IMG/VR virus record: IMGVR_UViG_2671180915_000012
DNA: 4,368 bases
Reading direction: 5' to 3' (one strand)
Source of the DNA: a virus
Lineage: Duplodnaviria > Heunggongvirae > Uroviricota > Caudoviricetes
Shown piece by piece: positions 2,405-2,651 of this stretch. The position numbers and the translations under genes are program-made. Under the pieces are notes generated by a model, which saw only the letters and a list, made by a program, of their open reading frames with translations, did no database searches and was not told the origin of the DNA. Position 1 is the stretch's first letter. Each line of letters starts with the position of its first letter.

Positions 2405-2553
2405 TAAGCAGACTCATTGTATCTATGGACATTGTACTGGAAGAAAGCATTTTAAACATCAGGCAAAAAACAAAGTCACCCGATAAATAATAAGTAAACT
2501 AACATGAATCCCGTAATGAGATTCAACATCTCTATTACCCTATTTAAAGCACA

Positions 2554-2577
2554 AAAACCCGCTCATCAGCGGGTTTT
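2554..2577. terminator. Intrinsic terminator; on the minus strand it is the tR'-like terminator downstream of the late promoter, and it may also end cspF-side plus-strand transcripts
   Basis: AAAACCCGCT-CATC-AGCGGGTTTT forms a 10-bp stem with a 4-nt loop. Minus-strand tail TTTTTGTGCTTT; plus-strand tail CTACTTTTTCTT. Confidence 0.7.
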
Positions 2578-2622
2578 CTACTTTTTCTTAACTTCGGGTA
2601 TACAAAGCCCATCGTTGAAAAA

Positions 2623-2651
2623 ATTTTATCCATATTTTTTGAAAAATGCAA
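2623..2651 (-). promoter_or_regulatory. Putative late promoter pR' (-35 TTGCAT, 17-nt spacer, -10 TAAAAT); the qut site for the Q antiterminator is expected to overlap it
   Basis: Minus strand TTGCAT-TTTTCAAAAAATATGGA-TAAAAT lies directly downstream of the Q gene stop (2683) and ~45 nt upstream of the terminator hairpin. This is the canonical lambdoid Q / pR' / short transcript / tR' layout. Confidence 0.6.

Follow-up and report, generated by a model that had tools for sequence, protein, structure and literature searches.

A probable lambda-type late-control module ahead of cold-shock cargo genes in a Qin/SfV-type lambdoid prophage

At the late promoter pR' of phage lambda, 6 nucleotides (nt) separate the -10 hexamer from the start site, a -10-like element re-binds sigma70, a discriminator-like GGG lies at +7 to +9, and RNA polymerase pauses at +16/+17 (PMC5001585, PMC7876045). 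The pR' promoter of phage 82 likewise combines a sigma70-dependent promoter-proximal pause with a terminator behind it; there, the -10-like element is further downstream, and the pause falls at +25/+26 (PMC7876045, PMC5001585). Here we describe a 4,368-base stretch of viral DNA (IMG/VR record IMGVR_UViG_2671180915_000012; "the window" refers to this whole stretch), which covers the part of a Qin-type lambdoid prophage from Q to the lysis genes. On its minus strand, between positions 2651 and 2549 and just past the antiterminator gene Q (ydfT/quuQ), lies a segment that is very probably the late-control module (pR', Q-engagement site, and tR') of a Qin/SfV-type lambdoid prophage with a Q-lambda homologue. 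The module has the geometry of lambda, not that of phage 82. The Q proteins of phage 82 and phage 21 belong to other families.

By mechanism, the nearest described system is lambda pR'; by sequence, the nearest are the modules of SfV, mEp460, and the Stx2c-converting phages. Like the lambda pR'-qut-tR' region, the window has a homologous Q, a promoter just after Q, a 17-nt spacer, 6 nt between the -10 hexamer and +1, an identical AACGAT followed by GGG, an intrinsic terminator that would yield a short RNA, and a holin gene downstream. It departs from lambda in its -35 hexamer (TTGCAT), in its spacer, in ∼40 extra residues of Q, in the 1.76 kb of cargo placed before the holin, and in the length of the short RNA, which is 194 nt for lambda 6S RNA and a predicted 67-68 nt here. 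SfV, mEp460, Ayreon, and the Stx2c and Stx2k phages carry the same module, with 97-98% identity in Q and 83-85% in the promoter-pause-terminator DNA. Their cargo differs, being a DNA methylase with small open reading frames (ORFs), or transfer RNAs (tRNAs) with stx2, instead of the csp cassette, and their holin types and the middle part of their short RNA also differ from those of the window.

We began the description of the module at its promoter, which adjoins Q on the same minus strand. The -35 hexamer TTGCAT (2651..2646) begins 32 nt past the ydfT stop and is followed by the 17-nt spacer TTTTCAAAAAATATGGA (2645..2629), the -10 hexamer TAAAAT (2628..2623; TAAGAT in the SfV group), and the 6 nt TTTTTC. 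In the lambda register, the predicted +1 is the A at 2616 on the minus strand, with its K-12 counterpart at 1642422(-). The pause element then occupies +1..+6 (AACGAT, 2616..2611) and +7..+9 (GGG, 2610..2608), and a sigma70-dependent pause is predicted, by analogy with lambda, at about +16/+17, that is, at window 2601/2600. Set side by side, lambda reads TTGACT-17-TAAATT-TGACTC-AACGATGGG and the window TTGCAT-17-TAAAAT-TTTTTC-AACGATGGG, so that the pause element AACGATGGG has the same sequence in the same register in both. The two spacers are identical at 11/17 positions in a by-eye comparison, and the spacer of the window is the presumed Q-binding element on the lambda model. The composite pattern TAAAWT-N6-AACGATGGG occurred once in the window and in 0/200 shuffles, and all 14 loci compared (lambda included) had a single AACGATGGG, located at this site after Q. 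It is this shared register that lifts the module above chance, which the weak consensus match alone would not do. A preliminary description of the window had placed the promoter at 2623-2651 and termination at about 2548, and these coordinates proved accurate to 1-2 nt.

The gene upstream of the promoter, ydfT/quuQ (2683..3435, minus strand), is intact and encodes 250 amino acids (aa). YdfT matched the Pfam family Antiterm (PF03589) at 1.5e-53 and, at E = 1e-37, the chains of Q-lambda in the structures 7UBM/7UBN (loading and loaded complexes), and its sequence identifies YdfT/QuuQ as an antiterminator homologue of the Q-lambda family. Its identity with the corresponding protein is 98% in SfV and 93-98% in the other module-bearing phages. 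Compared with Q-lambda, YdfT has an insertion of ∼40 residues (Q residues ∼120-160) with extra CxxCxGxG motifs. The insertion matched DnaJ_CXXCXGXG below threshold (31.2 bits against a cutoff of 32.7) and, judged by these motifs, looks like a duplicated zinc-finger unit.

About 30 nt beyond the pause element lies a tR'-like intrinsic terminator (2549..2577, minus strand), whose hairpin AAAACCCGC-TGATGA-GCGGGUUUU (3' arm also written GCGGGTTTT) spans 2577..2554 and has a GC core, CCCGC/GCGGG, below the loop TGATGA; the tract U GUGC UUU follows. The SfV and Ayreon records carry a terminator annotation at this hairpin. A transcript from the predicted start to this terminator would run from 2616 to 2549, a length of 68 nt (67 nt in K-12), with its 5' end placed by the promoter register. 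The preliminary description had foreseen a short (∼70-nt) 6S-like transcript from the spacing of promoter and terminator, and this length agrees with it. A predicted 71-nt RNA folded at -25.5 kcal/mol (z = -4.2), and the short RNA has an A-rich stretch, AAGAAAAAGUAGAAAA, just before the terminator hairpin with its U-tail. An Rfam scan assigned the short RNA to no family; over 2548-2641 it returned only a sub-threshold Phe_leader, which we rejected as a terminator artefact (E = 0.47; 25.2 bits, where the gathering score is 55).

In Escherichia coli K-12 MG1655, a 3' end has been recorded by Term-seq at 1642356(-) and classed as "orphan" (Adams et al., 2021, PMC7815308, Supplementary file 1). 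The sequence at this end is ...GCGGGUUUUGUGC, with flanks ...AAAACCCGCTGATGAGCGGGTTTTGTGC before and TTTAAATGGG after the end, and when mapped onto the K-12 locus it falls on the C equivalent to window 2549. The end is entered three times in a file that spans three growth conditions, and it appears to be present in all three. The module accounts for this orphan 3' end, and the K-12 Qin element between ynfS and ydfT now has a precise description, from the start predicted at 1642422(-) to the 3' end measured at 1642356(-). The Term-seq data contain a second minus-strand end at 1642188, 168 nt past tR' and antisense to ynfS, which is entered once; it points to some transcription downstream of tR' and fits either some read-through or a separate start.

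To follow the module across phages, we used a distant blastn search against 50,697 phage records, which matched 35 of them. These included the viable phages SfV, mEp460, Ayreon, 2H10, Tritos, and PhiR42_1, as well as PhiR63_1 and HannyBb, 15 Stx2c-converting phages, one Stx2k phage, and Salmonella phages; no Stx1 or Stx2a phage was among the 35. When 13 module copies were aligned (11 from phages plus those of the window and K-12 Qin), the block from -35 to -10 was the most conserved segment (96%), above the 3' coding end of Q and the upstream spacer (84-86%), and the mid-transcript part from +23 to +39 was the least conserved (72%), with the Qin and SfV groups differing there. The -35 hexamer TTGCAT was identical in 13/13 principal copies; TTGTAT occurred only in a degenerate copy in PhiR63_1 and HannyBb. 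An exact-pattern scan of IMG/VR found at least 120 loci, and adding the window and the loci from phages and genomes gave a set of at least 38 distinct transcript variants. We folded 23 of these variants, most of which kept a stable hairpin and U-run ending at +63 to +66 despite changes in loop and stem; the Salmonella phage variant has a different stem, CCUCGC/GCGGGG. The module was also found in 1881/5426 complete E. coli genomes, where, among the matches listed, the adjacent Q gene was the sole annotated feature under the match.

A natural chimera bears on the extent of the Q-engagement elements. In locus L092 (IMGVR_UViG_2565956633_000004, ∼3776-4825, module-plus orientation), a Q 97% identical to that of the window and its promoter are followed, from a joint at or just after AACGATGGG, by DNA that is 97% identical to lambda and carries its 6S leader, tR', and S gene. 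The elements for Q engagement thus appear to lie upstream of about +10, and the chimera fits the lambda model, in which Q needs the promoter and the first few transcribed bases.

PhiR63_1 and HannyBb each carry two module copies (locus L011, 2321-2500 and 4015-4194; locus L009, 2325-2504 and 4019-4198). The copy beside Q is degenerate, with TTGTAT ... AAAGAG, AATGATGAG, and a weak hairpin; the intact copy lies 1.7 kb downstream, with a remnant of the 3' end of Q before it. We found no tRNAs, Rfam matches, or direct repeats in the inserted 1.7 kb. The degenerate copy was seen in 9 of the loci examined.

On the lambda model, we propose that sigma70 RNA polymerase would initiate at about 2616 on the minus strand, and that sigma70 region 2 would then re-bind the -10-like AACGAT (+1..+6), backed by GGG (+7..+9), and hold the polymerase in a pause near +16/+17. 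Without Q, the polymerase would escape and stop at the hairpin and U-tract, giving an RNA of 67-68 nt analogous to lambda 6S RNA and StxS. With Q, binding between -35 and -10 and loading onto the paused polymerase would make the complex resistant to terminators. Once past tR', the polymerase would transcribe ynfS and cspF in antisense and then cspB, with its promoter and leader, in sense; it would cross a second terminator at 1250..1231 and transcribe ynfU in antisense before entering essQ, ydfR, and the lysozyme, Rz, and morphogenesis genes.

The DNA between tR' and the holin behaves as a unit of exchange. Homology to relatives with other cargo ends at window 2550, at the end of the terminator (2546-2553 in 3/6 loci compared), and in the one relative with the same holin type (locus L042) it picks up again at 788, which leaves nine bases to the holin start. 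These two breaks delimit an exchangeable cargo slot, 789-2549, that in the window holds ynfS, cspF, cspB with its leader, the terminator at 1231-1250, and ynfU. Among the matches listed, 75 IMG/VR loci had at least 3 kb of downstream sequence. The order cspF(-)/cspB(+)/ynfU(-) and then the holin was found in 44 of the 75, and one more had cspF and cspB only; about 24 carried a methylase-type cassette, and the remainder had other cargo. In the Stx2k phage, tRNAs and stx2 occupy the slot. The distance from the module to the holin, across this variable cargo, is ∼0.6-4.5 kb in the phage and IMG/VR relatives examined.

In the window, the holin start is 1770 nt past the terminator, in line with the ∼1.8 kb of cargo that the preliminary description had estimated, and the viable phages 2H10, Tritos, and PhiR42_1 share the order Q-pR'-tR'-csp-holin. 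Because viable phages have this layout, Q-modified polymerase must cross the cargo in them, if they lyse in the lambdoid way; no second module copy nearer the holin was found in L001, a related genome locus containing the window region. The late-transcribed strand is sense to cspB and to the holin gene essQ and antisense to cspF, the 29-aa ORF (ynfS), and ynfU, the orientation that had been described before.

How the slot is transcribed internally depends on its own signals. The cspB coding sequence (1747..1532, minus strand) is sense to late transcription and, with its leader and 3' hairpin, is covered by a match to the cspA thermoregulator (Rfam RF01766; 1908..1469, minus strand; 156.7 bits, E = 5e-42). 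A review describes the cspB leader as bound by Rho and repressed at 37°C; extra cspB RNA need therefore not mean extra CspB. Given a cspA-type thermoregulator leader and the reported Rho attenuation, co-induction of CspB protein at 37°C is doubtful. Between ynfU and cspB, on the way from cspB to the holin, lies a strong palindromic intrinsic terminator (1231..1250; 8-bp stem with 5 GC pairs; minus-strand tail TTTATTATCT). Read on the minus strand, it would shield the lysis genes from the cold-inducible cspB promoter, and Q-modified polymerase would have to override it. On the plus strand, K-12 Term-seq places a ynfU 3' end at this hairpin (1641060). The abundant cspB 3' end on the minus strand is recorded instead at 1641224/6 (about window 1419); it lies ∼170 nt upstream and follows a hairpin without a U-tract.

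Several points weigh against a late-control module that is at work in the window. The hexamers match the consensus at only 8/12 positions, a generic sigma-70 scan omitted the promoter, and no transcription start site (TSS) matched the K-12 coordinates or gene names in the Cappable-seq, SMRT-Cappable-seq, and RNET-seq supplements. The 3' end at 1642356(-) could in principle belong to the ydfU-ydfT mRNA instead of a pR' RNA, and a few IMG/VR variants have a weak or degenerate terminator. Antitermination by YdfT is something that we infer, as are Q binding and read-through. An insertion sequence (IS) of the IS3 family upstream of Q may block Q expression in the window, which makes read-through in this prophage uncertain. 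In DNA-damage RNA-seq of K-12, prophage-wide induction was reported only for e14 and not for other cryptic prophages, and read-through may for that reason never occur in such hosts. The last two observations would be expected if the module were intact but a fossil here, with Q too low, only the short RNA made, and cargo coupling confined to active relatives. The IS3-family element indeed truncates the DUF968 gene upstream of Q, and K-12 Qin is annotated as cryptic. Against a fossil stand a full-length Q that is 98% identical to that of a viable phage, the apparently complete and IS-free prophages of the closest genomes (e.g., O55:H7 CB9615), and the K-12 minus-strand 3' end 168 nt beyond tR', apparently in one condition. 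We regard a fossil module as a real possibility, although not as the expected case.

The other observations bear on whether there is a promoter here at all. If the hairpin were merely a bidirectional terminator shared by the Q operon and cspF-ynfS, the hexamers would be inactive and no 6S-like RNA would arise; the K-12 3' end, 133 nt after the ydfT stop, would then end the ydfT mRNA, and the weak promoter score, its absence from the scan list, and the missing TSS entry would follow. This is very unlikely, since the register is identical to that of lambda pR', with AACGATGGG 6 nt after the -10 hexamer, the promoter block is better conserved than the 3' coding sequence of Q, the natural chimera places this promoter on the lambda 6S leader at the pause element, and, in viable phages, the Q-to-holin interval offers no alternative candidate for the late promoter. 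We also consider it improbable, to nearly the same degree, that a nearer promoter in the ynfU-essQ region drives the lysis genes and that crossing the cargo is unnecessary. Peaks of RpoE and RpoH holoenzyme were reported by genomic SELEX (systematic evolution of ligands by exponential enrichment) in the K-12 essQ-cspB spacer, at about window 780-1530 (PMC5493296), and a generic scan gave weak AT-rich promoter-like sites at 931..904. The SELEX peaks, however, lie in AT-rich DNA and are a binding signal only, and since homology with the same-holin relative resumes only 9 nt before the holin start, no conserved promoter segment precedes the holin. Moreover, lambdoid lysis and morphogenesis genes normally form one Q-dependent transcript. 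In view of the SELEX peaks, a minor, Q-independent promoter nearer the holin is possible.

There is also the question of whether the terminated RNA is itself the selected product, that is, a constitutive trans-acting Hfq-binding small RNA (sRNA) like StxS (EcOnc15). In Stx1 and Stx2a phages, StxS is likewise a short RNA, made in lysogens when transcription starts constitutively at pR' and stops at tR', and its authors propose antitermination-regulated promoters as a source of sRNAs. The stable terminator hairpin, the U-tail, the A-rich AAGAAAAAGUAGAAAA before them, and a K-12 3' end seen apparently in all three conditions would suit such a role. Processing from a longer precursor, Hfq binding, and targets are all established for StxS, and no sequence homology between it and the RNA of the window was detected. 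The distant blastn search likewise detected no homology to the pR' regions of Stx1 and Stx2a phages, the RNA matched no Rfam family, and its +23..+39 part is the least conserved (72%), with one form in the Qin group and another in the SfV group, and no evident conserved seed. On balance, we find an sRNA function unlikely. The wider proposal that the 67-68 nt RNA is a constitutive trans-acting sRNA, a StxS analogue present in about one-third of E. coli genomes, K-12 included, with read-through acting as a lytic-phase antisense switch on cspF, ynfS, and ynfU, is speculative, and we would not expect it to hold.

A late-control module working by the lambda mechanism is an ordinary element of a well-understood kind, conserved across phages and unannotated in this window, and it does not overturn current understanding. 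The same Q/pR'/tR' module controls stx2c and stx2k in the converting phages; because these toxin genes share it, biochemistry performed on the K-12 or SfV version would transfer to toxin regulation. The stx cargo also offers the closest parallel to the csp cargo, as both sit in the same slot, carry their own signals, and would be swept by Q-antiterminated transcription. The csp cargo is unlike stx in that 3/4 of its genes (cspF, ynfS, and ynfU) are antisense to late transcription and in that the cspB leader is cold-inducible and thermoregulated. The preliminary description had called the coupling of cargo to late transcription unstudied. For the csp genes this appears to be correct, as a search of one literature library turned up no publication that treats the Qin-type module or describes csp genes as cargo of the late region; as a principle it is classical, from the stx genes in the same slot. 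The 789-2549 slot is a tractable case both for the benefit that a phage may draw from cold-shock genes and for the effects of antisense late transcription on opposed cargo.

We also examined whether the module segment could encode a small protein. A 35-aa ORF (2651..2544) and an AUG at +5 (MGFVYPKLRK...) were considered and rejected, as coding was not conserved: the frame meets a stop at codon 12 in Tritos and in the Salmonella phage, and in K-12 it overruns the measured 3' end.

On the plus strand of the slot lie ynfU (998-1168), cspF (2048-2260), and the 29-aa ORF ynfS (2315-2404). Being palindromic, the tR' hairpin is also terminator-like on the plus strand, downstream of cspF-ynfS, and a generic terminator scan listed it in that reading only. 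Adams et al. reported a plus-strand region of Rho-dependent termination inside ydfT, at K-12 1643015(+) (about window 3210); transcription of cspF-ynfS may therefore continue beyond the shared hairpin, antisense to the Q gene, and be ended there by Rho.

A second cold-shock cluster, cspI-ynfQ(-ynfR)-ynfN, lies sense in the late unit between Rz and the terminase genes (locus L001, 4070-4481; locus L007, 1955-2668, downstream of the lysis genes). Its genes cspI, ynfQ, and ynfN are reportedly induced by azidothymidine in a LexA-dependent manner, although they have no LexA box (PMC11228462). We considered this SOS co-induction as a sign of Q read-through and rejected it, since the authors report prophage-wide induction for e14 only.

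Positions 1-4270 of the window are 100% identical to prophages of several E. coli genomes, e.g., O55:H7 CB9615, and K-12 Qin is colinear with the window at 93.5% identity. At the far end, the left end of the IS3-family element (∼4271-4368; transposase orfA from ∼4325 on the plus strand, beginning MTKNTRFSPEV) cuts the 5' end of the ydfU-like DUF968 protein gene (minus strand) at a point ∼830 nt upstream of Q that early transcription has to cross; the exact IS3/DUF968 junction had no match in the complete E. coli genome collection. At the near end, essQ (564..779, minus strand) encodes a class II (phage 21-type) holin (Pfam PF04971, 1e-33) and is the first lysis gene of the late operon. It is followed by ydfR (559..215, minus strand; DUF1327). 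An 80-aa ORF at 7-249 on the plus strand, which overlaps ydfR in antisense, has no Pfam match and corresponds to the RefSeq hypothetical protein WP_001315200.1, is probably not a real gene.

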